From: a bacterium | GTDB lineage: Bacteria; Auribacterota; Tritonobacteria; UBA1439 | Length of the DNA: 64,000 nt | Assembly (NCBI GenBank): GCA_028716845.1 | Contig: JAQUPF010000001.1 | Location: forward strand, 216,167 to 280,166 | Direction: 5' to 3' | Shown: one piece after another, positions 1,224 through 62,106 of the stretch | Layout of the letters: the number at the start of each line of letters is the position of its first letter | Numbering within the stretch: the first letter of the stretch is position 1 | The notes under the pieces: generated by a model | Databases searched by the model: none | Told to the model about the DNA's origin: nothing | Seen by the model: the letters and a program-made list of their open reading frames with translations, nothing else | Made by a program: the position numbers and the translations under genes

Positions 1224-1763
1224 ATGGGGATCAACCTCGGGCGGCTCGTCCGCGGGGACAAGGCGGCGTGGGACGCGTTCGTCGAGCGCTTCTCGCCGGT
1301 CATCTACGCGGGGGTCAGCCGGACGCTCTTTGCCCGCTCCTCGCGCGCGACGGAGGAGGACGTGCGCGACCTCGCGCAGTCGGTCTTCATCCGCCTCCTG
1401 AAGGACGACTGCCGGCTGCTGCGGCGGTACGACCCGTCGAGGGCCTCGCTCGTGACGTGGCTCACCATCGTCTCGCGGAGCGCCGCCCTCGACTTCCTCC
1501 GCAGGAAGACCCTCTCCACGGTCCCGCTCGACGGCGAGGCGCTCCAGGTCAGCGACGGGAAGGCGGCCCGGCCGGTCCTCCCGCTCTCGATACCGGAGGG
1601 ACTCCTCTCGCCGCGCCAGGCCCTCGTCCTGCACCTCCTCTTCGATCGGGACATGGCGGTCGAGGAGGCCGCGGGGCTCCTGGGCGTGGAACCGCAGACC
1701 GTCCGGAGCATCAACCACAAGGCGCTCACGAAGCTCCGCGCCTTTTTCAGGGAGCCGACGTGA
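1224..1763 (+). CDS. ECF-type RNA polymerase sigma factor (sigma-70 regions 2 and 4)
   Basis: Track ORF 1200..1763; ATG at 1224 gives MGINLGRLVRGDKAAWDAFVERFSPVIYAG... with C-terminal helix-turn-helix (QTVRSINHKALTKLR); size about 180 aa. Confidence 0.8.
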   Translation: MGINLGRLVRGDKAAWDAFVERFSPVIYAGVSRTLFARSSRATEEDVRDLAQSVFIRLLKDDCRLLRRYDPSRASLVTWLTIVSRSAALDFLRRKTLSTVPLDGEALQVSDGKAARPVLPLSIPEGLLSPRQALVLHLLFDRDMAVEEAAGLLGVEPQTVRSINHKALTKLRAFFREPT

Positions 1764-1821
1764 CCGGTTTTTCCCGGGGATGCGGCGTCCCCCCGGCGCG
1801 TATAACGGAATGGAGGATCGC

Positions 1822-2328
1822 ATGATGTCGCCCGACCGTTCAGACGACAGGCGCCTGTGGGAGCGCGCCCGCGAAGCGGGTGCGCCGCCGGGAGGGTCCC
1901 CGTGCCCGGAGGCGATGGACCTCGCCGCCTGGGCGGACGGCCGGGCGGGCCGGGCGCTCGAGGAGGCCGTCGACGCCCACCTCGCCCGCTGCCCCGCCTG
2001 CCTGGAATCCCTCCGCGAGGTCCGGGCGCTCGCCCGGGAGGGCACGGCGGCGGCGCCGGCGGCGGTCAGGGCGAGGGCGAAGGCGCTCGTCCCGGAGCCG
2101 GCCGGAACCGTCTCCCCGTTCCGGATCCTGCTGGAGCGCCTCTCGGCGCGGACGGCGGCCGGGTGGGCTGCGGCGGCCGTGCTCGTCGCGACCGCCTGCG
2201 CGGCCGGGTACCGCATGGGGCAGGGTCCAGCCTCCCCGTCGCCGCCCGCCGTCTCGGCCTATTTCGCGCCGGCATTCGGCCTGAACGGCCCGGCGGCCGA
2301 CCCGCTCCTCATGGGAGGTGCGCTGTGA
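1822..2328 (+). CDS. Anti-sigma factor, zf-HC2 type with one transmembrane helix
   Basis: Track ORF 1780..2328; HLARCPACL (H-x3-C-x2-C) motif, hydrophobic segment WAAAAVLVATACAAGY; GGAGGA 5 nt upstream of ATG 1822; immediately downstream of the ECF sigma gene. Confidence 0.7.
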   Translation: MMSPDRSDDRRLWERAREAGAPPGGSPCPEAMDLAAWADGRAGRALEEAVDAHLARCPACLESLREVRALAREGTAAAPAAVRARAKALVPEPAGTVSPFRILLERLSARTAAGWAAAAVLVATACAAGYRMGQGPASPSPPAVSAYFAPAFGLNGPAADPLLMGGAL

Positions 2329-2777
2329 GCGCGCGTCTGAACAGGGTCATGGGCATCGCCCTCGCGGCGAGCGTCTGCTTCAACGCGTTCTTCGTCATCG
2401 GGTACTGGCGCGCGCGGACGACGATCGGTGAGCTCGCGACGGACGAGGGCCGCGTGCGGCTCATCGCGCGCCGGCTCGGCCTGTCGGAGGAGCAGGAGGA
2501 GCGGTTCCTCGCCCTCAGGAGGCGCTTCGAGGAGGAGCGGGCCCTGTACGACGCCGAGCACGCCGCCGAGGCCGACGCCTTCTGGGAGGAGATGAGCAGG
2601 GACGACCCCGACATGGAGCTGATCAGGGAGATGCTCGCCTACTCGGCGGAGATGCGCCGGGAACTGCGGGACCGGGGGACCGAGTACATGCGCGAGGCGT
2701 TCCACCTCCTCTCGAGGGAGCAGCGGCAGGCGCTCGCGAGGATGATCCGGGAGAGGAGTTACCTCAGGGGGCTGTGA
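2325..2777 (+). CDS. Periplasmic LTXXQ-motif (Spy/CpxP-like) stress protein
   Basis: C-terminal part of track ORF 1857..2777; GTG at 2325 overlaps the anti-sigma stop (GTGA); N-terminal hydrophobic anchor, then helical Glu/Arg-rich region with LSEEQEERFLALRRRFEEE. Confidence 0.5.
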   Translation: MSARLNRVMGIALAASVCFNAFFVIGYWRARTTIGELATDEGRVRLIARRLGLSEEQEERFLALRRRFEEERALYDAEHAAEADAFWEEMSRDDPDMELIREMLAYSAEMRRELRDRGTEYMREAFHLLSREQRQALARMIRERSYLRGL

Positions 2778-2825
2778 GCCGCGCCCGGCGGTGAAGCGCG
2801 CGGCCGGAAAGGGGGGAGGATCGGA

Positions 2826-3098
2826 ATGAGAAGGGCGATCGTGGCGGCGGGGCTGATTTCGGCGCTCGCGGCGGCGCCCGCCTTCTCATGGAGCGGGCGG
2901 GGGCACTGCCGGCCGGGGCCGCGGAGGCATTCCTACGGGCACTGGGAGCGGGGCGGGTGGCACCGCAGGCCGCGGCCGTACCGGTATGACAGGGCGTACT
3001 ACCGGTACCGGCGGCCGTATCCGGCGTACCCGGTGGTCTGGGCGCCGCGGCCGGTGTACGTCGTGCCCCAATACTACCCGCCGCCGGTCTGGTGGTAG
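2826..3098 (+). CDS. Small secreted Arg/Tyr/Pro-rich protein
   Basis: Track ORF; signal-peptide-like N-terminus (AAGLISALAAAPAFS), GGGAGGA RBS just upstream; product unknown. Confidence 0.4.
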   Translation: MRRAIVAAGLISALAAAPAFSWSGRGHCRPGPRRHSYGHWERGGWHRRPRPYRYDRAYYRYRRPYPAYPVVWAPRPVYVVPQYYPPPVWW

Positions 3099-3139
3099 AA
3101 ACGCCGGTCCCCGTTCCGTCGCGAGAGGCGCGCCTCCCC

Positions 3140-3601
3140 TCACCGCGTTCCGGCGCGCGTCCTGAAGTAGTCCGACAGGATGGCGCGGTGGTCGAAGGCG
3201 ATCTCGCTCGGCAGTTCGTCCTCGGCGAATATCCCCGCCTCCGCGGCGTCCGAGTCGGCCCGCGGCTCCCCCTCCCCCTCCGCCGTGTAGACGGCGGAGA
3301 CGGTGTGGACGCGGGGGTCGCGCGACGGGTCGGAATACACGCCGAGGAGGCCCGTGAGCGTCACCTCGATCCCCGTCTCCTCGAGGGCCTCGCGGACGGC
3401 GCAGTCCTCGGCCCGCTCGCCGTACTCGAGAAAGCCGCCGGGGATCGCCCAGCCGTGCGGCGGGTTCTTCCGCCGGACGAGGACGACCGCCTCGCGCCCC
3501 TCCTTCACCCGCCGGATGAGAATGTCCACGGTGGGGACCGGATGCTCCCGTGAGAGGAACTCCGTCCCGCACGACGGGCACCTGACGCGGCCTTTCATCA
3601 T
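3140..3601 (-). CDS. NUDIX hydrolase
   Basis: Track ORF; Nudix box GGFLEYGERAEDCAVREALEETGI; N-terminal CPSCG zinc-ribbon-like motif. Confidence 0.8.
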   Translation of the reverse strand: MMKGRVRCPSCGTEFLSREHPVPTVDILIRRVKEGREAVVLVRRKNPPHGWAIPGGFLEYGERAEDCAVREALEETGIEVTLTGLLGVYSDPSRDPRVHTVSAVYTAEGEGEPRADSDAAEAGIFAEDELPSEIAFDHRAILSDYFRTRAGTR

Positions 3602-3616
3602 CCCCTCCCGCGGCTC

Positions 3617-4945
3617 CTAGAACCGCATGATCCTCGCCCGCGGCGTCGGCGTCGGCGTCTCGGGCGTCGGCCCGGCGGGCGGCACCCCCCCCTCGTCCCC
3701 CCCGGCCGGTATCCGGGCGGCGGGGGCGGGGCCGAGGAGCCGGGACACCTCCGGCAGCGACCTTCCCTCCGGCCGGAGCGCGACGTACCGCTCGAACGCC
3801 TCGACCGCCTTCGGCCGATCCTTGAGGTAGTCGCCGTAGACGATCCCCATGTCGAGGTACGCCTCGGCGAAATCCGGCCTGATCTCGACCGCCCGCCGGT
3901 ACTCCTCGACGGCCCGCTCGTACTCGGCCCGCAGGGCGTAGATGGTGCCGAGGTTGTTGCGGAGCGCGGCGTCCTCCGGGAAGAGCGAGACCCCCCGCTC
4001 GCCCGCCGCGGCGGCGGCATCGAGCCGGCCCGAGCGCTGGAGGGCGACGGCGAGGGCGTTGAAGATGTCGGGGCCGACCGCGCCCGCCTCGGCCATCACC
4101 CCGTAGACGGCCGCGGCGGCGGCCGCGTCCCCCCGCTCCTCGTGGGCGCGGGCGAGGGCGAGTGCCGCCGCGGCGCACCGCTCCCGCGTCCCCTCGCTCC
4201 ACCCGGCCCTGATCGCGTCCGCCGCCTCCTCGAGCATGCCGCGCCCGATCCGGTACTCGGCGAGGGCGCAGTGCTCGTCGGGGGTGGCCCCGCCGGAGGC
4301 CGCGAGCGCCGCGAGCTGCCCGGCCGCCCGCTCCCCCTCCCCCGCCCGCGCGAAGAGGTCCATGGCGATCCGCCGCAGGGAGGCGTCGCCGCTCCGGGCG
4401 TCGGCGGCGCGGGCCGCGTAGGCGGCCGCCTTCGCGATGTCGCCCGCGGCGTAAAAGTGCCGCGCGAGCTCCTCCTGGAGGCCGGCGTTCTCCGGCTGGA
4501 GCGCCGCGGCCGCCTCGTATTCCCGCAGCGCCTCCCGGCCGAGGCCCATCTTCCGGTAGAGGGCGCCGAGCCGCTCGTGGAGCGCGCCGCTCGCGGGCAG
4601 GTGCGCCATCGCGTCCTGGTAGTGCGCCGCCGCCTCCTGGAGCTCCCCGCCGGAGAGGGCGACGTCGCCGAGCGAGAGGTGGGCGGAGGCCCGGTAGAGG
4701 CTCCAGTACTTCTCCCGGAGCTCCTCGTCGGGGAGGCAGTCGCCGTAGATATAGCCCAGGTTGAAGAGGGCGGTGCCGTTCATCGGGTCCAGCTCGAGGA
4801 CCTCCTTGAACAGGCGCGCCGCCTCCTCGCACCGCTGCTCCTGGAGGAGCGCCCTCCCCGCCGAGAGGCGCGCGGCGACCAACTCCTGTTCCCCGCCCTC
4901 TGCGAGAACGGCGAGGGCGACGATCAGCGCGACGGACGGCGTCAC
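3617..4945 (-). CDS. Secreted tetratricopeptide-repeat protein with Thr/Pro-rich C-terminal tail
   Basis: Track ORF; GTG start preceded by GGGGAGGAG; signal peptide, then multiple TPR-like units (AEAYLDMGIVYGD..., NNLGTIYALRAEYERAVEEYRRA...). Confidence 0.8.
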   Translation of the reverse strand: MTPSVALIVALAVLAEGGEQELVAARLSAGRALLQEQRCEEAARLFKEVLELDPMNGTALFNLGYIYGDCLPDEELREKYWSLYRASAHLSLGDVALSGGELQEAAAHYQDAMAHLPASGALHERLGALYRKMGLGREALREYEAAAALQPENAGLQEELARHFYAAGDIAKAAAYAARAADARSGDASLRRIAMDLFARAGEGERAAGQLAALAASGGATPDEHCALAEYRIGRGMLEEAADAIRAGWSEGTRERCAAAALALARAHEERGDAAAAAAVYGVMAEAGAVGPDIFNALAVALQRSGRLDAAAAAGERGVSLFPEDAALRNNLGTIYALRAEYERAVEEYRRAVEIRPDFAEAYLDMGIVYGDYLKDRPKAVEAFERYVALRPEGRSLPEVSRLLGPAPAARIPAGGDEGGVPPAGPTPETPTPTPRARIMRF

Positions 4946-34509: not shown

Positions 34510-37101
34510 ATGCCGCGCCATCTTCGCTCCAGGACGCGTCTCCTTCTTTCCGCACTCGCCATCGCCTTTCTCATCCCGGCCGTCCCGCTCCGCGCCCAGC
34601 CCGCGGCGTCGGCGTGGCCGATGTTCCGCGGGAACCCCGCCCGGACGGGGCTGAGCGCCCACGAGGGGCCGAAGACGGGCAAGCGGCTCTGGCGCGTGAG
34701 CGCCGGGGACGCGATCGACACCTCCCCCGCCATCGGGACCGACGGCACGATCCACGTCGGCTCGTGGGACAGGCGCCTCTACGCCTTCCTTCCCGACCGG
34801 ACGCTCGCCTGGAGCTACGAAACCGGCGACCGGATACTCTCCTCGCCGGCGATCGACGCCGGCGACAGGGTCTATTACGGCTCCTCCGATATGCGCCTCT
34901 ACTGCCTCACGTCGGCGGGCTCGCTGGTGTGGAGCTACGAGGCGGCCGGCGACATCGTCAGCTCGCCGGCGATCGGGCCTGACTCCGAGATCTACTTCGG
35001 CTCCTGGGACAATGCCCTCTACGCCCTCGACTCGGGCGGATCCCTCGCGTGGAGCTACATGACGTCGGGGGGGATCGGCTATTCCTCTCCGGCGCTCGAC
35101 GGCGACGGCGGCGTCTACATAGGATCCTGGGACAGGATCCTGTACGCCCTCTCATCCGAAGGCGCGCTCCGGTGGAGTTACCATGCCGGGGGCTCGGGCA
35201 TCGACACCACCGCCGCCGTCGGTCCCGGGGGGAACATCTATTTCGGGAGTGTCGACACCGGCACGCTCTTCGCCGCCGATTCGACCGGCTCGTTCCTGTG
35301 GAGCTACGAGGCCGGCTGGGGGAGTATCTCCTCCCCCGCCATCGGCGCCGCCGGACGGGTCTACTTCGGCTCATCCGACCACAACGTCTACGCCCTCACG
35401 CACGACGGCGCGCTCGCCTGGAGCTACGAGCTCGCGTACGATCCGCAGTGGTCGGCGCCCGCCGTCGATGCCGAGGAGGGGATATACGCCGCCGGCGGCT
35501 GGCCGGCGAGGGTCTTCTCGTTCGACTCCGCGGGGACGTTCCTCTGGAGCTACAGCACGGGAGGCAACATCAATTCCTCCCCCGCGATCGGGGCTGACGG
35601 GACGCTCTTCATCGGCTCCGGCGACCGGCGGCTCCTCGCGCTCTACGATCCGACACCCACGCCGACGCCGACCGCCCCGACTCCCACGCCGACGGAGACG
35701 CCCACCGCCGGCCCGCCGGAGCCGGTCTTCGCCGTCGGGCGCACCTACGATCCGGCGCTCAGCGTATCCCATCCGGTCATCCTCCAGCGGCACGGCGCGC
35801 GGTGGCTGGACGTCGCCCCCGCCATGGAGGCGTCGCTCTGGCAGGTGGACGTAACCTCATGGAGCGACGCGTGGGCGGCGGGAGACGTCTGGGACCCGGT
35901 CGCCGAGGTGGCGAACATCGTCATCCTCCGGTGGGACGGATCGTCGTGGACGGACGTCTCGCCGCCGGGGATGGAGGGGTACTTCAGCGACATGCACATG
36001 CGCTCCGCCACGGAGGGGCTCGCCGTGGGGTCCTACTGGGACGAGGTCCAGGAGAAGTCCTTCGTCAAGACATGGAGCTGGGACGGGTCTTCATGGACCG
36101 ACGTCTCCCCGGTCATCGAGGGATGGCTCAACGGTGTCGGGATGGTGTCGGCCACTGAGGCGTACGCCGTCGGCAGTTGGTGGGATCCCGTGGATTCCAA
36201 ACAGTACATCAGGATACTCTCCTGGGACGGCTCCTCCTGGACCGCCATCGCCACGCCCGACGCCGAGGGGTATCTCGAGTCGCTGACCATGACCGGGCCG
36301 GGCGAGGGATACGCCGTCGGCAGCCGGTGGGATCCCGTGGCGGGGCAGTCACGCATCGTTATCTTCCGCTGCTCGGGAGGCGCATGGTCGGACGTGTCGC
36401 CCGGCGATGAAGGGTATCTGAATGACATCAGCATGTCCTCATCCGGGGAAGGGTACGCCGTCAGCAGTTTCTGGGACGATGACGAGGAGCTCTCCTACGC
36501 CCTCATCCACCGGTGGGACGGGACGGCCCTCACCGACGTGACGCCCCCGGGCATGCGGGGCTGGCTCGGCAGCGTGGACGTCAGGCCGGGCACGGGGCAT
36601 GCCGTCGGCTCGTGGTACGATCCCGAGACAGAGACGACGTGGTGCCGCATCGCCGATTTCGACGGCTCCTCGTGGACGGAGGCGTCCCCCGATTTCGCGG
36701 TCGATCTCAACGACGTCTCGATCGGGCCGCTGGGACCCTCGCCGACGCCGACGGAGACCCCGTCCCCGACGCCGACCGAGACGCCCTCGCCGACCCCGAC
36801 GCCGACGCCGGAGACGTACTGCTACGGGCCGCTCGGGATCTGCTACCTCCTCCCGCACGGGAATCCGCCGGTGCCGGAGAGCTACCCGGTGAACGACTGC
36901 GACGAGTGCGATACCTACACGCCGACGCCGACCGAGACGCCGGGGGAGACCCCCACGCCGACGCCCACGCCGACGGGCACGCCCGCGCCGGACGGCCCGT
37001 GGGTCAACTTCCAGCCCGATTCCGTCGACGTCCCCTTCGGCTACGTCCTGATGGACGAATCGGCGTACGGCGTCCGCGGCGAGCGGGGCTGGGTGTACTG
37101 A
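34510..37101 (+). CDS. Secreted multi-repeat protein: PQQ-like beta-propeller repeats, Thr/Pro linkers, second propeller-like W-D-G-S-S-W-T repeat domain, Cys-rich C-terminus
   Basis: Track ORF 863 aa; GGGAGGGG RBS; signal peptide; repeated Y-x-x-S-x-D-x-x-L-Y-A-L units; TPTPTPT linkers; at least 6 units of about 47 aa with WDGSSWTDVSP...GYAVGS. Confidence 0.75.
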   Translation: MPRHLRSRTRLLLSALAIAFLIPAVPLRAQPAASAWPMFRGNPARTGLSAHEGPKTGKRLWRVSAGDAIDTSPAIGTDGTIHVGSWDRRLYAFLPDRTLAWSYETGDRILSSPAIDAGDRVYYGSSDMRLYCLTSAGSLVWSYEAAGDIVSSPAIGPDSEIYFGSWDNALYALDSGGSLAWSYMTSGGIGYSSPALDGDGGVYIGSWDRILYALSSEGALRWSYHAGGSGIDTTAAVGPGGNIYFGSVDTGTLFAADSTGSFLWSYEAGWGSISSPAIGAAGRVYFGSSDHNVYALTHDGALAWSYELAYDPQWSAPAVDAEEGIYAAGGWPARVFSFDSAGTFLWSYSTGGNINSSPAIGADGTLFIGSGDRRLLALYDPTPTPTPTAPTPTPTETPTAGPPEPVFAVGRTYDPALSVSHPVILQRHGARWLDVAPAMEASLWQVDVTSWSDAWAAGDVWDPVAEVANIVILRWDGSSWTDVSPPGMEGYFSDMHMRSATEGLAVGSYWDEVQEKSFVKTWSWDGSSWTDVSPVIEGWLNGVGMVSATEAYAVGSWWDPVDSKQYIRILSWDGSSWTAIATPDAEGYLESLTMTGPGEGYAVGSRWDPVAGQSRIVIFRCSGGAWSDVSPGDEGYLNDISMSSSGEGYAVSSFWDDDEELSYALIHRWDGTALTDVTPPGMRGWLGSVDVRPGTGHAVGSWYDPETETTWCRIADFDGSSWTEASPDFAVDLNDVSIGPLGPSPTPTETPSPTPTETPSPTPTPTPETYCYGPLGICYLLPHGNPPVPESYPVNDCDECDTYTPTPTETPGETPTPTPTPTGTPAPDGPWVNFQPDSVDVPFGYVLMDESAYGVRGERGWVY

Positions 37102-58583: not shown

Positions 58584-58883
58584 ATGATGGCAACAAGATT
58601 CCTCAGGACACTCGCGGCCGTCGTCGCGGCCGCCGCGGTGCTGGCTTCGACGGTCGACGCCGCCGGGAAGGTGAACATCAACACCGCCTCCCGGTGGAGG
58701 CTCGAGAAGCTGCCGGGGGTCGGTCCGGACATCGCGCAGCTGATCATCGCCTACAGGAGGGATTCAGGCGGGTTCAGGAGTGTCTCCGAGCTCGGCCAGA
58801 TACCCGGCATCGGCGGAAAGAAGCTTGAGGGTCTCAAGCGCGTCGCCACCGTCGGCCGGCTCGCGGAGCGCGACCGTCTCTGA
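58584..58883 (+). CDS. ComEA-like secreted helix-hairpin-helix DNA-binding protein
   Basis: Part of track ORF 58557..58883; ATG 58584 with AGGAGA RBS; signal peptide; INTASRWRLEKLPGVGPDIAQLIIAYRRDSGGFRSVSELGQIPGIGGKKLEGL. Confidence 0.7.
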   Translation: MMATRFLRTLAAVVAAAAVLASTVDAAGKVNINTASRWRLEKLPGVGPDIAQLIIAYRRDSGGFRSVSELGQIPGIGGKKLEGLKRVATVGRLAERDRL

Positions 58884-58902
58884 CGGGCGCTGGAGCGGAA
58901 CG

Positions 58903-58936
58903 GGCGGTTCGCCGACGGCGAGCCGCCATTTTTTTT
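58903..58936 (+). terminator. Rho-independent terminator after the ComEA-like gene
   Basis: GGCGGTTCGCC-GACG-GCGAGCCGCC hairpin followed by A and eight T residues. Confidence 0.75.
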
Positions 58937-59115
58937 GCGCGGGCCGGTCCGCGAAAAGCGGCCACCTGTCCACGGCGCCGATGATGTTGCCGTCGACCTT
59001 CAGGACGGCCGGCCCCGACCGCCCTTTCGCGTTGGGCGCGTCGATGATCGGCCGCGAGGGAAAGCCGCGGCGTTCATCGGCGCCCGGCGACGTGTTTCAT
59101 GTTATATTGATTCTC

Positions 59116-62106
59116 GTGAACGTGCGCGCGTGGCATCCCAGCTTGAAGACGATCGTCGCCGCGGCCGCCTCCCTCGCCGCGCTGCAGCCCCTGCCGGGCG
59201 CCGCCGGTCCCGACGAGGGGCCGGACGCCGGTTCCGAGCTCGCGCTCCATTCCCGGGTCATCCGGCCGGGTCCGGCCGACCTCGAGGGGCTCCGCGCCGC
59301 CGCCGCGCGCGCGCACGGGAGATCGCGGATCCACGCCCTCATCCGACTCGACGGGATCCCTTCGCCGGCACGCCGGGCGGCGCTCAGCCGGGAAGGGCTC
59401 TTCCTCCTCTCCTACGTGCCCGACCGCGCCTGGCTCGCCTCGCTCCCCTCGGACGACATCGGCCGTATCGTCGCCCTGCCCGGCGTTCGATGGGCGGGGC
59501 CGCTCGATCCGGCCGACAAGATCAGCCCGATCCTCCGGCGGGGCGGGTTCGGCGGATGGGCGCACGACGGGTCGTCGGGCCGCTGCGTCGTCCTCGTCAC
59601 GCTGTTCCGGGACGTCGGCCTCGAGGAGGGGGAGGAGGCCGTCCGCTCGCTCGGGGGGAGGGTCACGGGGGAGGCGGGTCTCGTCCACACGCTCGTTGCG
59701 GAGATCCCCGTCGCGGCGGTCGAGGCCCTCGCCGCCCATGACATCGTCGAGTGGATCGAGCAGCCGCTCCCGCCGCTCGAGCCGGTCAACGCCGGGAACA
59801 GGGCGGTCGTCGGCGCGGACACGCTCCAGGCCGCGCCGTACAACCTCGCGGGGAGCGGCGTGAACGTCCTCGTCTACGACGCCGGACGGGTGTACGGCCA
59901 CAGCGACCTGGTCGCTCGGATGACGGAGGGCGACTCCTCGCCGTTCCATGAGCACGCCACGCACGTCGCCTGCACGGTCTGCGGCGACGGCACGGTGACG
60001 TTTAACAACCGCGGGATGGCGCCGGCCGCCAATCTCCTCTCGATGGGGTTCGAGTACGACGGGAGCGGCGTCTTCCTCTACACGAACCCGGGCGACATCG
60101 AGGACGATTTCACCTACGCGAAGAACGCCTGGCCCCCCTCCGCCGACCTCCTCAACGCCTCCATCGGGACGAACACGGCCTGGAACGGTTTCCCGTGCTC
60201 CTACGAGGGGAACTACGGCGTCACCGACATCCTCCTCGACTCGATCGTGCGCGGATCGCTCGGGGAGCCGTTCATCATGGCGTGGGCCGCGGGGAACGAG
60301 CGGGGAGACGGCAGGTGCGGCTCATCGTACCGCACAACCGCGCCGCCGGCGTGCGCGAAGAACCCGATCCAGTCCGGGGCGACGAACGAATCCGACGGGA
60401 TGTCCTCCTTCTCGTCATGGGGGCCGACGGACGACGGGCGGATCAAGCCGGTCGTCTGCGCGCCGGGCGTGAACGTCCTCTCGTGCAATCAATCCAACGG
60501 CTACAGGACAATGAGCGGGACATCGATGGCCTCGCCGACGACCGCCGGCGTCATCGCCCTCATGCTCGAGCAGTACCGGATCACGTACGGGACCGCCGTC
60601 GCCTTCCTCCCCTCGTCGGCGAAGGCGCTCCTCATCCACACGGCGGCGGACCTCGGCCCGGCGGGGCCCGATTTCCGCTTCGGCTACGGCCGGATCGACG
60701 CCGTGGCGGCGGCGGACCGGATCATCGCGCGCGACCTCCGCGAGGAGCCGGCCACCGTCCACGACGAGACCCGTGACTACGCGGTGACGGTCGCGCCCGG
60801 GACGCCCGAACTCAGGGCGAGCCTCGCCTGGGACGACCCGCCGGGGACGCTCATGGCGGTGCGGAAGCTCGTCAACGACCTCGACCTCGAGCTGGTTGCC
60901 CCGGGCGGCGCCGTCCACCGCCCCTGGGTCCTCGATCCCGCGAATCCGTCGGACACCGCGACGACGGGCGCGGACAATCTCAACAACCAGGAGCAGGTCG
61001 TCGTGAGCGGCCCCGCCGCCGGCGTCTGGACGGTCCGCGTCCGCGCCTCAGCCCTCCCGGAGCCGCCGCAGGCGTACTCGATCGTCTTCCCCGGGGCGGC
61101 CGACATCGCTCCCGCCGTGACGCCCGGGGCCACGCCCACGCCGACGCCGACGCCGAAGGTGTGCTACGAGGCCGTGACGAACGGCGGCTTCGAGTCGGGC
61201 TCGGATCCCTGGGTCCTGACCGGCTCGGCGGTCCGGAGCGCCCAGCAGGCGCGGTCGGGCTCGTACTCGATGCGGCTCGGGGGCCCGGGCAACGGCAGGA
61301 TGCATCTCGAGGTCGGCGTCCCGCCGTCGGCCGCAGGCGCCACGCTCTCCTACTGGGTCCGGATGCAGACGGCGGAGACCGACCCCGATCCGGACGACTT
61401 CCTGGATGTGGAGATCCACGACGGCGCCGGGAGGACGCTCACGACGCTCCAGTCGCTCTCCGACCGCGATCCGTCCTACAAGGACGCGTGGCGGCAGGAG
61501 TCGTTCACCCTCGGGTCGGACCTCGCGGGAAGAACGATCCGGCTGCATTTCCAGGCGCTGGTGAACAACACCATGGCCACCTATTTCTTCATCGATGACG
61601 TGGGCCTCGAGATCTGCGGATCCGAGCTGCCGCCGACGCCCGCGCCGACGCCGACGCCCGCGCCCAACTACATCAACCTGTCGCTCTCCCCGGTACAGCT
61701 CCGGCCGGGCGGGGCGGTGGAACTCTCCTGGCGCTGCGACTTCAGCCGCTGGGACTACGCGGGCCGGCCGGTGGACGTGTACCTCGCGGCGATCAGGGAC
61801 CCGAAGGCGGCGGGGGCCTCGTCGAGCATCGGGGACGCGCTCGCGGGCGGCGAGGTCCGGCTCTTCGAGGACGGGATGCGGACGTCGTACCGTTTCACCG
61901 GCGCGGTGCGGGCGCCGTGCTGGCGGGGCGTGGTATTCCCGCCGACACCGCTCGCGGGGACGCTCCGGTTCACGGTGCCGCCCGACCCGTCGTTCCACGG
62001 CGACTGGGTGTTCGCGACGGCGTTCTTCCTGAAGGATCCGCCGGGGCCGGTCCGCGACGACGGCCTCCCCGTGGAGAACTCCGACATCGCGACGGTCGCC
62101 CCGTAG
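59116..62106 (+). CDS. Secreted subtilisin-like serine protease (peptidase S8) with propeptide and large C-terminal extension
   Basis: Part of track ORF 58780..62106; start uncertain (candidates between 59044 and 59143); catalytic triad contexts VLVYDAG, HATHVACT, SGTSMASP; Thr/Pro linkers; C-terminal beta-rich domains. Confidence 0.8.
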   Translation: MNVRAWHPSLKTIVAAAASLAALQPLPGAAGPDEGPDAGSELALHSRVIRPGPADLEGLRAAAARAHGRSRIHALIRLDGIPSPARRAALSREGLFLLSYVPDRAWLASLPSDDIGRIVALPGVRWAGPLDPADKISPILRRGGFGGWAHDGSSGRCVVLVTLFRDVGLEEGEEAVRSLGGRVTGEAGLVHTLVAEIPVAAVEALAAHDIVEWIEQPLPPLEPVNAGNRAVVGADTLQAAPYNLAGSGVNVLVYDAGRVYGHSDLVARMTEGDSSPFHEHATHVACTVCGDGTVTFNNRGMAPAANLLSMGFEYDGSGVFLYTNPGDIEDDFTYAKNAWPPSADLLNASIGTNTAWNGFPCSYEGNYGVTDILLDSIVRGSLGEPFIMAWAAGNERGDGRCGSSYRTTAPPACAKNPIQSGATNESDGMSSFSSWGPTDDGRIKPVVCAPGVNVLSCNQSNGYRTMSGTSMASPTTAGVIALMLEQYRITYGTAVAFLPSSAKALLIHTAADLGPAGPDFRFGYGRIDAVAAADRIIARDLREEPATVHDETRDYAVTVAPGTPELRASLAWDDPPGTLMAVRKLVNDLDLELVAPGGAVHRPWVLDPANPSDTATTGADNLNNQEQVVVSGPAAGVWTVRVRASALPEPPQAYSIVFPGAADIAPAVTPGATPTPTPTPKVCYEAVTNGGFESGSDPWVLTGSAVRSAQQARSGSYSMRLGGPGNGRMHLEVGVPPSAAGATLSYWVRMQTAETDPDPDDFLDVEIHDGAGRTLTTLQSLSDRDPSYKDAWRQESFTLGSDLAGRTIRLHFQALVNNTMATYFFIDDVGLEICGSELPPTPAPTPTPAPNYINLSLSPVQLRPGGAVELSWRCDFSRWDYAGRPVDVYLAAIRDPKAAGASSSIGDALAGGEVRLFEDGMRTSYRFTGAVRAPCWRGVVFPPTPLAGTLRFTVPPDPSFHGDWVFATAFFLKDPPGPVRDDGLPVENSDIATVAP

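Follow-up and report, generated by a model that had tools for sequence, protein, structure and literature searches.

What kind of protein is encoded by the 863-amino-acid (863-aa) gene at positions 34510–37101 of the 64,000-nucleotide stretch of contig JAQUPF010000001.1 analysed here (the window), and what might the protein do? A sequence-only reading of the window had proposed a secreted product in which two different propeller-like repeat domains are joined by Thr/Pro linkers, the second built from a repeat that it did not recognise. We find the open reading frame (ORF) on the plus strand with exactly these limits. Its product is a PQQ-like modular secreted protein combined with a second propeller, hereafter domain 2; this propeller is distantly related to Ycf48 and has a short Asp-box, and the protein is largely ordinary apart from its 35-aa C-terminal tail. 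As to function, we favour, with a probability of roughly one half, a Sec-exported modular protein of the envelope or cell surface, in which two non-catalytic propellers would serve as binding platforms on flexible linkers, ending in a lineage-specific tail.

Architecture of the protein

The coding status of the gene is firm because its product matches two Pfam families, PF13570 (Beta-prop_ACSF4; 223.4 bits against a cut-off of 133, E = 6e-66) and PF13360 (PQQ_2; 89.1 bits against a cut-off of 27.6, E = 5e-25), and because homologues reach 46–48% identity at the protein level. A search for exactly this protein in public assemblies and a gene-position index gave no record. The N terminus looks like a Sec-type signal peptide of the SPI class (residues 1–29, MPRHLRSRTRLLLSALAIAFLIPAVPLRA followed by QP; 34510–34596, plus strand): five Arg lie within residues 1–10, a hydrophobic core follows, and the segment closes with PLRA/QP, where the slash marks the presumed cut. 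It has no lipobox Cys, the first Cys of the protein being residue 132, and the N termini of paralogues are arranged alike (...SLA/QPS..WPMFRHD). These features would bear out the proposed secretion.

Both Pfam matches, each above its gathering cut-off, confirm that the repeats after the signal peptide are PQQ/BamB-like. The domain spans residues 30–380 (34597–35649, plus strand), and its blade period resolves eight ‘WSY’ blades of about 40 aa within residues 61–380 (anchors at 61, 101, 141, 181, 222, 264, 304 and 346; spacing 40–42 aa; mean identity 43%). Relatives of this propeller are plentiful, with 3,131 of 8,000 scored candidates at E ≤ 1e-20, and are large secreted modular proteins with PKD, FN3, Big or type IX secretion system (T9SS)-tail modules. 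They usually bear the name ‘PQQ-binding-like beta-propeller repeat protein’ or, loosely, ‘BamB’. The PQQ_2 match, which Pfam ties to BamB, and the label ‘outer membrane protein assembly factor BamB’ that JGI gives to many relatives would fit an orthologue of that assembly factor. The NCBIfam equivalog PRK11138, however, reaches 46 bits where 423 is the cut-off, so that the protein is not BamB. It also has no lipobox, it is 863 aa long with a second propeller and linkers, compared with about 390 aa for BamB, and its relatives are extracellular, large and modular. We consider BamB identity extremely unlikely and effectively refuted by the equivalog score. The Pfam scan of the whole protein gave no match to the PQQ enzyme repeat (PF01011) at E ≤ 1.

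Domain 2 (residues 403–742; 35716–36735, plus strand) consists of seven repeats of 48–49 aa, anchored at residues 427, 475, 524, 572, 621, 669 and 717, where at least six repeats of about 47 aa had been proposed; the repeat is real, and its count is hereby corrected. One unit aligned to the other copies gave Smith–Waterman scores of 53–140, compared with 39 ± 6 (maximum 63) for shuffled sequences; the score of 53 belongs to the last, partial copy and lies inside the shuffle range. The blades share a mean identity of 37%. AlphaFold2, run on domain 2 with a 53-sequence alignment, returned a predicted local distance difference test (pLDDT) score of 91.5 and a predicted template modelling (pTM) score of 0.88. 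A second run on residues 401–863, for which short tail fragments had been removed from the alignment, modelled domain 2 at pLDDT 89–98 as a closed seven-bladed propeller of 28 strands, four to a blade. Blade 7 combines three N-terminal strands with the last C-terminal strand, VDLNDVSI, in a 3+1 velcro closure. The two domains are thus distinct propellers, mutually different, as had been supposed.

In the models, DSSP assigns WDGSSW to the turn that connects strand 3 to strand 4. Domain 2 is strongly acidic, with 51 Asp or Glu residues against 16 Lys or Arg and a pI of about 4, and its B–C hairpins are long, with acidic tips (EVQE, PVDS, DDEE and PETE). In the standard propeller topology, such long B–C hairpins would crown one face. 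An acidic domain with an acidic hairpin crown suggests that its ligand may be cationic or metal-mediated.

Three Thr/Pro linkers separate the modules on the plus strand. Linker 1 (residues 381–402; 35650–35715), with a Thr + Pro fraction of 0.82 and a hexamer DNA repeat, joins the two propellers; linker 2 (residues 743–768; 36736–36813; fraction 0.77; 24-nt and 6-nt DNA repeats) and linker 3 (residues 803–828; 36916–36993; fraction 0.73; DNA repeats) flank a short Cys-containing segment. Repetition at the DNA level is confined to these linkers, and the propeller blades are therefore old and diverged. Two other genes of the window end or are interspersed with similar sequence: at 58780–62106 (plus strand), an S8 subtilase (Peptidase_S8, 1e-36) is followed by weak PPC-like and MAM-like regions with Thr/Pro linkers, and at 3617–4945 (minus strand), a 442-aa repetitive ORF, rich in Ala, Leu and Glu and TPR-like by eye, closes with the short stretch PTPETPTPTP. 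Linkers of this kind appear to be a habit of the exported proteins of the source organism.

Family of domain 2 and its relation to Ycf48

Leaving the second repeat unrecognised was reasonable, given that domain 2 has no direct match in Pfam, NCBIfam or the PDB sequences. Searched alone, it found nothing above threshold in Pfam (best match Rax2, E = 0.08) and no match in NCBIfam or among PDB sequences, and the Pfam profiles for WD40, Kelch, YVTN, NHL and FG-GAP repeats did not match it at E ≤ 10; its resemblance to such propellers in structure is generic. The family itself is neither rare nor novel. It is huge, uncurated and unnamed, with about 95,000 cluster representatives in many phyla. A word-index search with domain 2 returned 308 matches, mostly free-standing ‘hypothetical proteins’ of about 390 aa, a few of which bear the name ‘photosystem II stability/assembly factor-like’. 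The consensus blade of the family reads L.GV.A.S..D.WAVG(x10-11)L..HWDG..WT.V..P. An exhaustive hmmsearch with the family profile against 1.84 billion cluster representatives yielded 94,952 matches at E ≤ 1e-3, 61,946 at E ≤ 1e-10 and 27,102 at E ≤ 1e-30; in many of the proteins, 3–7 stretches are matched, implying several propellers each. Among GTDB species genomes, members occur in Actinomycetota, Chloroflexia, Planctomycetota, Myxococcota, Eisenbacteria, Krumholzibacteriia, Bacteroidota, Proteobacteria, Patescibacteria and others.

Annotation has not kept pace with this abundance. No NCBIfam model covers typical members, and the Pfam labels that some of them carry mislead. DUF2510, DUF6087 and Rax2 were rejected as family assignments, as none of their matched stretches is significant by itself and just the HWDGxxWT motif is covered; the labels, found in precomputed and fresh Pfam scans, sum sub-threshold scores. 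Judged by the aligned residues, these labels (on P0004, P0016, P0018 and others) look like motif echoes, and hence like systematic false family assignments. A search of the literature retrieved nothing on DUF2510 or on Ycf48 in bacteria without photosynthesis. A curated model in the Asp-box/Ycf48 clan would tidy many ‘hypothetical protein’ calls, since the family has tens of thousands of representatives and its proteins often contain several propellers; the practical value of the present findings is mostly for annotation.

The searches did reveal one remote relative whose function is defined. Compared with PDB sequences, the family profile gave one sensible match, HCF136/Ycf48, which is in blade register and weak (E = 0.018). 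Domain 2 falls outside the corresponding Pfam family, PF14870 (PSII_BNR), which did not match it even at E ≤ 10. Two bridging proteins connect the groups. P0081 matches domain 2 at E = 7e-13, PSII_BNR with 38.8 bits (cut-off 27) and, as its best match among solved Ycf48 structures, one at E = 1.2e-7; for P0110, the corresponding values are E = 2e-10, 49.8 bits against the same cut-off and E = 1.7e-5, and its pairwise alignment with domain 2 shows 35% identity over 191 aa (E = 1e-16). Because this transitive chain is significant at each step, we place the family beside Ycf48. A Foldseek comparison of the domain 2 model with the Ycf48 structure 5oj5 gave E = 5e-6. Since repeat proteins can inflate significance, we keep the relationship at the superfamily level: the chain supports a domain 2 family that would adjoin Ycf48 in the Asp-box supercluster, related as members of a superfamily and not of a family. 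The sequence-only reading had named a match to a well-known propeller family of defined function as evidence against it; the search came part of the way, to a remote relationship with Ycf48, with no direct match.

Sortilin-, PSII- and SGL-like propellers all fall within the Asp-box supercluster (PMC9218822). The short Asp-box, S/t-x-D/n-x-x-x-W/f/y, lies between strands 3 and 4, and the canonical form is SxDxGxTW (PMC2716378). Blades 2 and 3 of domain 2 carry the full short pattern, SWDGSSW, and blades 1, 2, 3 and 6 have the D-x3-W spacing, which is the family consensus in six of seven repeats. Both the site of WDGSSW, in the turn from strand 3 to strand 4, and its spacing, with Trp at +4 from Asp, fit a placement among the Asp-box propellers. 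The canonical motif, in which the distance is +5, was not found, and the Pfam BNR model did not match domain 2.

Could domain 2, then, help in the periplasm to assemble or stabilise a membrane complex, the role that Ycf48 has for photosystem II? The remote homology to Ycf48/HCF136 would agree with such a role, as would the lipobox-like ‘LAAS-C’ at the N terminus of orthologues at the same locus (described below), since cyanobacterial Ycf48 is lipidated (PMC8038367). Yet domain 2 is not matched by the PSII_BNR model, and neither a photosystem gene nor another candidate client adjoins the gene, its neighbours being rlmI-like, DUF308, smpB, PEGA and OFOR genes. Ycf48 binds D1 through a conserved Arg patch (PMC10403576), whereas domain 2 is net acidic. 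The window protein, moreover, has no lipobox, and its additional propeller and its linkers are typical of proteins outside the cell. We regard an assembly chaperone of this kind as very unlikely.

The C-terminal tail and its locus

What had been described as a Cys-rich tail proved to be two elements. The Cys residues are present (771, 778, 797 and 800, in CYGPLGICY...NDCDECD) in a 34-aa four-Cys segment (residues 769–802; 36814–36915, plus strand), and a separate 35-aa tail, which had gone unmentioned, follows linker 3 (residues 829–863, GPWVNFQPDSVDVPFGYVLMDESAYGVRGERGWVY; 36994–37101 including the stop codon, plus strand). The four-Cys segment has no Pfam match. At its position, the paralogues P0127 and P0125 carry a Cys-bounded module of about 110 aa and a further module; a Pfam scan of both modules found nothing, leaving an impression that the first is PPC-like unsupported. 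The four-Cys segment may be a reduced remnant of these modules.

The tail is 35 aa long, contains no hydrophobic helix and ends in ...GWVY. Its motif, [WF][IVF][ND]F-x7-PxG[YWH]-x7-Y[GD]-x5-GW followed by 0–2 residues and the stop codon, occurs in all proteins of the close clade; in P0001, P0125 and P0127 and at the loci L003 and L062, it stands with fixed spacing directly before the stop. A degenerate, fixed-length DNA pattern for the tail recovered six of six known copies with zero false positives in 817 kb (both strands). In the metagenome collection, the same pattern found just eight stretches, all from one set of assemblies representing one lineage and one study, and domain 2 is present in each of their complete ORFs. 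The tail stays at the very C terminus whether it follows domain 2 directly, other modules or three propellers, and this constancy indicates that it acts as a C-terminal element and not as a strand of one particular propeller. Neither the full protein nor the tail matched curated NCBIfam or Pfam models of sorting signals (the T9SS C-terminal domain, PEP-CTERM, LPXTG, GlyGly-CTERM and others). Any likeness of the tail to the beginning of a malectin/CBM-like domain would be speculative and carries no weight here.

The gene stands by itself between rlmI-like and smpB genes, a stable frame within which the locus varies. In the window, the order is rlmI-like, DUF308, the 863-aa gene, smpB (minus strand), a PEGA lipoprotein gene (minus strand) and OFOR (minus strand). 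Among related metagenome-assembled genomes, L003 has the same order minus the DUF308 gene, as does L001 as far as its short contig reaches. The syntenic gene in these two loci (4774–6111 in L003; 1827–3137 in L001) encodes only 436–445 aa, comprising a lipobox-like signal (‘LAAS-C’), unlike the N terminus of the window protein, one domain 2 and the tail. In L062 (ERZ1026796.6692, 1–4621), the upstream region is identical, and three domain 2 propellers with Thr/Pro linkers between them precede the tail. With one, three, or a PQQ propeller plus one domain 2 at the syntenic position, the locus is hypervariable in architecture.

The combination of both propellers was found in few proteins: P0127, P0125 and P0162. 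P0127 (gene B of L002; 1,028 aa) shares 48% identity with the window protein over 81% coverage, its linker and the start of its domain 2 being almost identical, and P0125 (969 aa) is its tandem neighbour. Such tandem two-propeller paralogues lie at 1378–4287 and about 4400–7130 of L002, from a related metagenome-assembled genome, and also in L054 (781–5554) and L059; in one of the L002 pair, the PQQ propeller is fused directly to domain 2, in the other through a Thr/Pro linker, and both have two extra modules with no Pfam match, plus the tail. P0162 (L053, 7288–11511; JGI 3300022593; 1,407 aa) comes from another environment and is a cellulosome-style assembly protein, in which a PQQ propeller, a Thr/Pro linker and domain 2 precede FN3 and dockerin modules and two cohesins; the tail is absent. 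A comparison of the genomic contexts of P0162, P0127 and P0085 revealed no partner genes in common.

These observations can be read more boldly. The tail might be an undescribed C-terminal signal dedicated to the domain 2 proteins of one uncultured high-GC lineage, either a sorting or anchoring tag or the propeller’s cognate ligand driving head-to-tail assembly, with the rlmI–smpB locus acting as a surface-variation hotspot that shuffles propeller number and type (one, three, or PQQ plus one); we consider this quite unlikely. A related proposal, equally doubtful in our estimate, is a self-assembling surface-layer or array protein in which the tail would be the ligand of a neighbour’s domain 2, or an envelope anchor, and copy number would tune a head-to-tail array. 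Its confinement to domain 2 proteins of one lineage and its position at the extreme C terminus, even behind other modules or two extra propellers, would suit such a ligand. Parallels exist elsewhere: Ycf48, the nearest characterised relative, binds a C-terminal tail wrapped round its propeller (PMC10403576); Kelch propellers of KLHDC2, which bind C-terminal peptides, are among the fold matches of domain 2; and P0162 has cohesin and dockerin assembly modules. Against this, the array is pure conjecture from a small sample of six or seven distinct proteins in one environment, and the AlphaFold2 model of the tail, at pLDDT 31–41, offers no docking.

Elsewhere in the window, which has a GC content of about 70%, an Rfam scan of the full 64 kb gave zero matches at the gathering threshold.

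Proposed function and comparison with known systems

Building on the architecture, folds, family relationships and locus variability established above, we infer a function as follows. The protein would be exported through the Sec pathway to the cell envelope or cell surface (periplasm, surface or medium), where the flexible Thr/Pro linkers would hold the eight-bladed PQQ/BamB-like propeller and the acidic, seven-bladed, Ycf48-like short-Asp-box propeller apart. Each propeller may bind an extracellular or periplasmic ligand, be it a protein, a peptide or a glycan, and the tail may provide C-terminal attachment or self-association. A non-catalytic scaffold is suggested because conservation falls on structural positions, the searches matched no enzyme family, and cohesin and dockerin modules occur in relatives of the cassette. 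Variation at one locus between one and three copies of domain 2 is what a surface or binding protein that evolves fast would be expected to show.

Several points weigh against this scaffold. We know of no family member with a known ligand, partner or phenotype. The signal peptide was assigned by eye, the genomic contexts of relatives are inconsistent, and AlphaFold2 gave no confident structure for the tail (pLDDT 31–41) or the Cys segment (pLDDT below 50). The top structural matches of domain 2 include the enzymes CylK and virginiamycin B lyase, so that the fold by itself would be compatible with catalysis. The protein could be an extracellular enzyme, with domain 2 catalytic in the manner of a GH33- or GH74-like Asp-box glycosidase or a CylK/Vgb-type lyase or alkylase, or with an N-terminal PQQ-dependent dehydrogenase. 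Identity to any enzyme is at most 14%, however, and no enzyme family was matched by sequence or profile; the positions conserved in the family are the Gly, Trp and Asp of the hairpins and not a candidate active site; the PQQ enzyme repeat was not found; and non-catalytic WD40 and designer propellers score equally well against the domain 2 fold. An enzyme is therefore unlikely. For the preferred binding scaffold, the biological meaning is that of one more modular secreted propeller protein, and the only possible leads to something new are the lineage-restricted tail and the differing number of propellers at one fixed locus.

Compared with known systems, the N-terminal domain is a full member of the PQQ/BamB-like propeller proteins, with eight blades and scores above the gathering cut-offs, and heads a large secreted modular protein as it does in thousands of relatives. 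It differs in being neither a BamB equivalog nor a bearer of the PQQ-enzyme signature, and its pairing with domain 2 is unusual, with about four other such proteins found here.

Domain 2 shares with Ycf48/HCF136 (PF14870, COG4447) the seven-bladed propeller and, in each blade, a conserved hairpin with Asp that connects strand 3 to strand 4; Ycf48 is non-catalytic, and a lipoprotein-like N terminus is seen in the syntenic orthologues of the window gene. By contrast, the blades of domain 2 are longer (48–49 aa, with long B–C hairpins), its hairpin is WDGxxW (Asp to Trp, +4) instead of the canonical SxDxGxTW (+5), and it is strongly acidic with no obvious Arg patch. It also has no photosynthetic context and is fused to a PQQ-like propeller through Thr/Pro linkers.

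With the Asp-box propellers at large (GH33, GH74 and sortilin/Vps10; PMC2716378, PMC9218822), domain 2 has in common the position of the motif, its short pattern and an extracellular or secreted setting. In known structures, the short form usually occurs in one or two blades; in domain 2, four of seven blades have the D-x3-W spacing, two of them with the full pattern. Asp-box glycosidases are irregular, whereas domain 2 is very regular, has no BNR match in Pfam and has no identified catalytic residues. Finally, as in cellulosome-type modular proteins, linkers rich in Thr and Pro part independently folding modules, the relative P0162 carries cohesin and dockerin, and a Thr/Pro-linked S8 subtilase lies within the window; unlike them, the window protein has no carbohydrate-active, cohesin or dockerin module.

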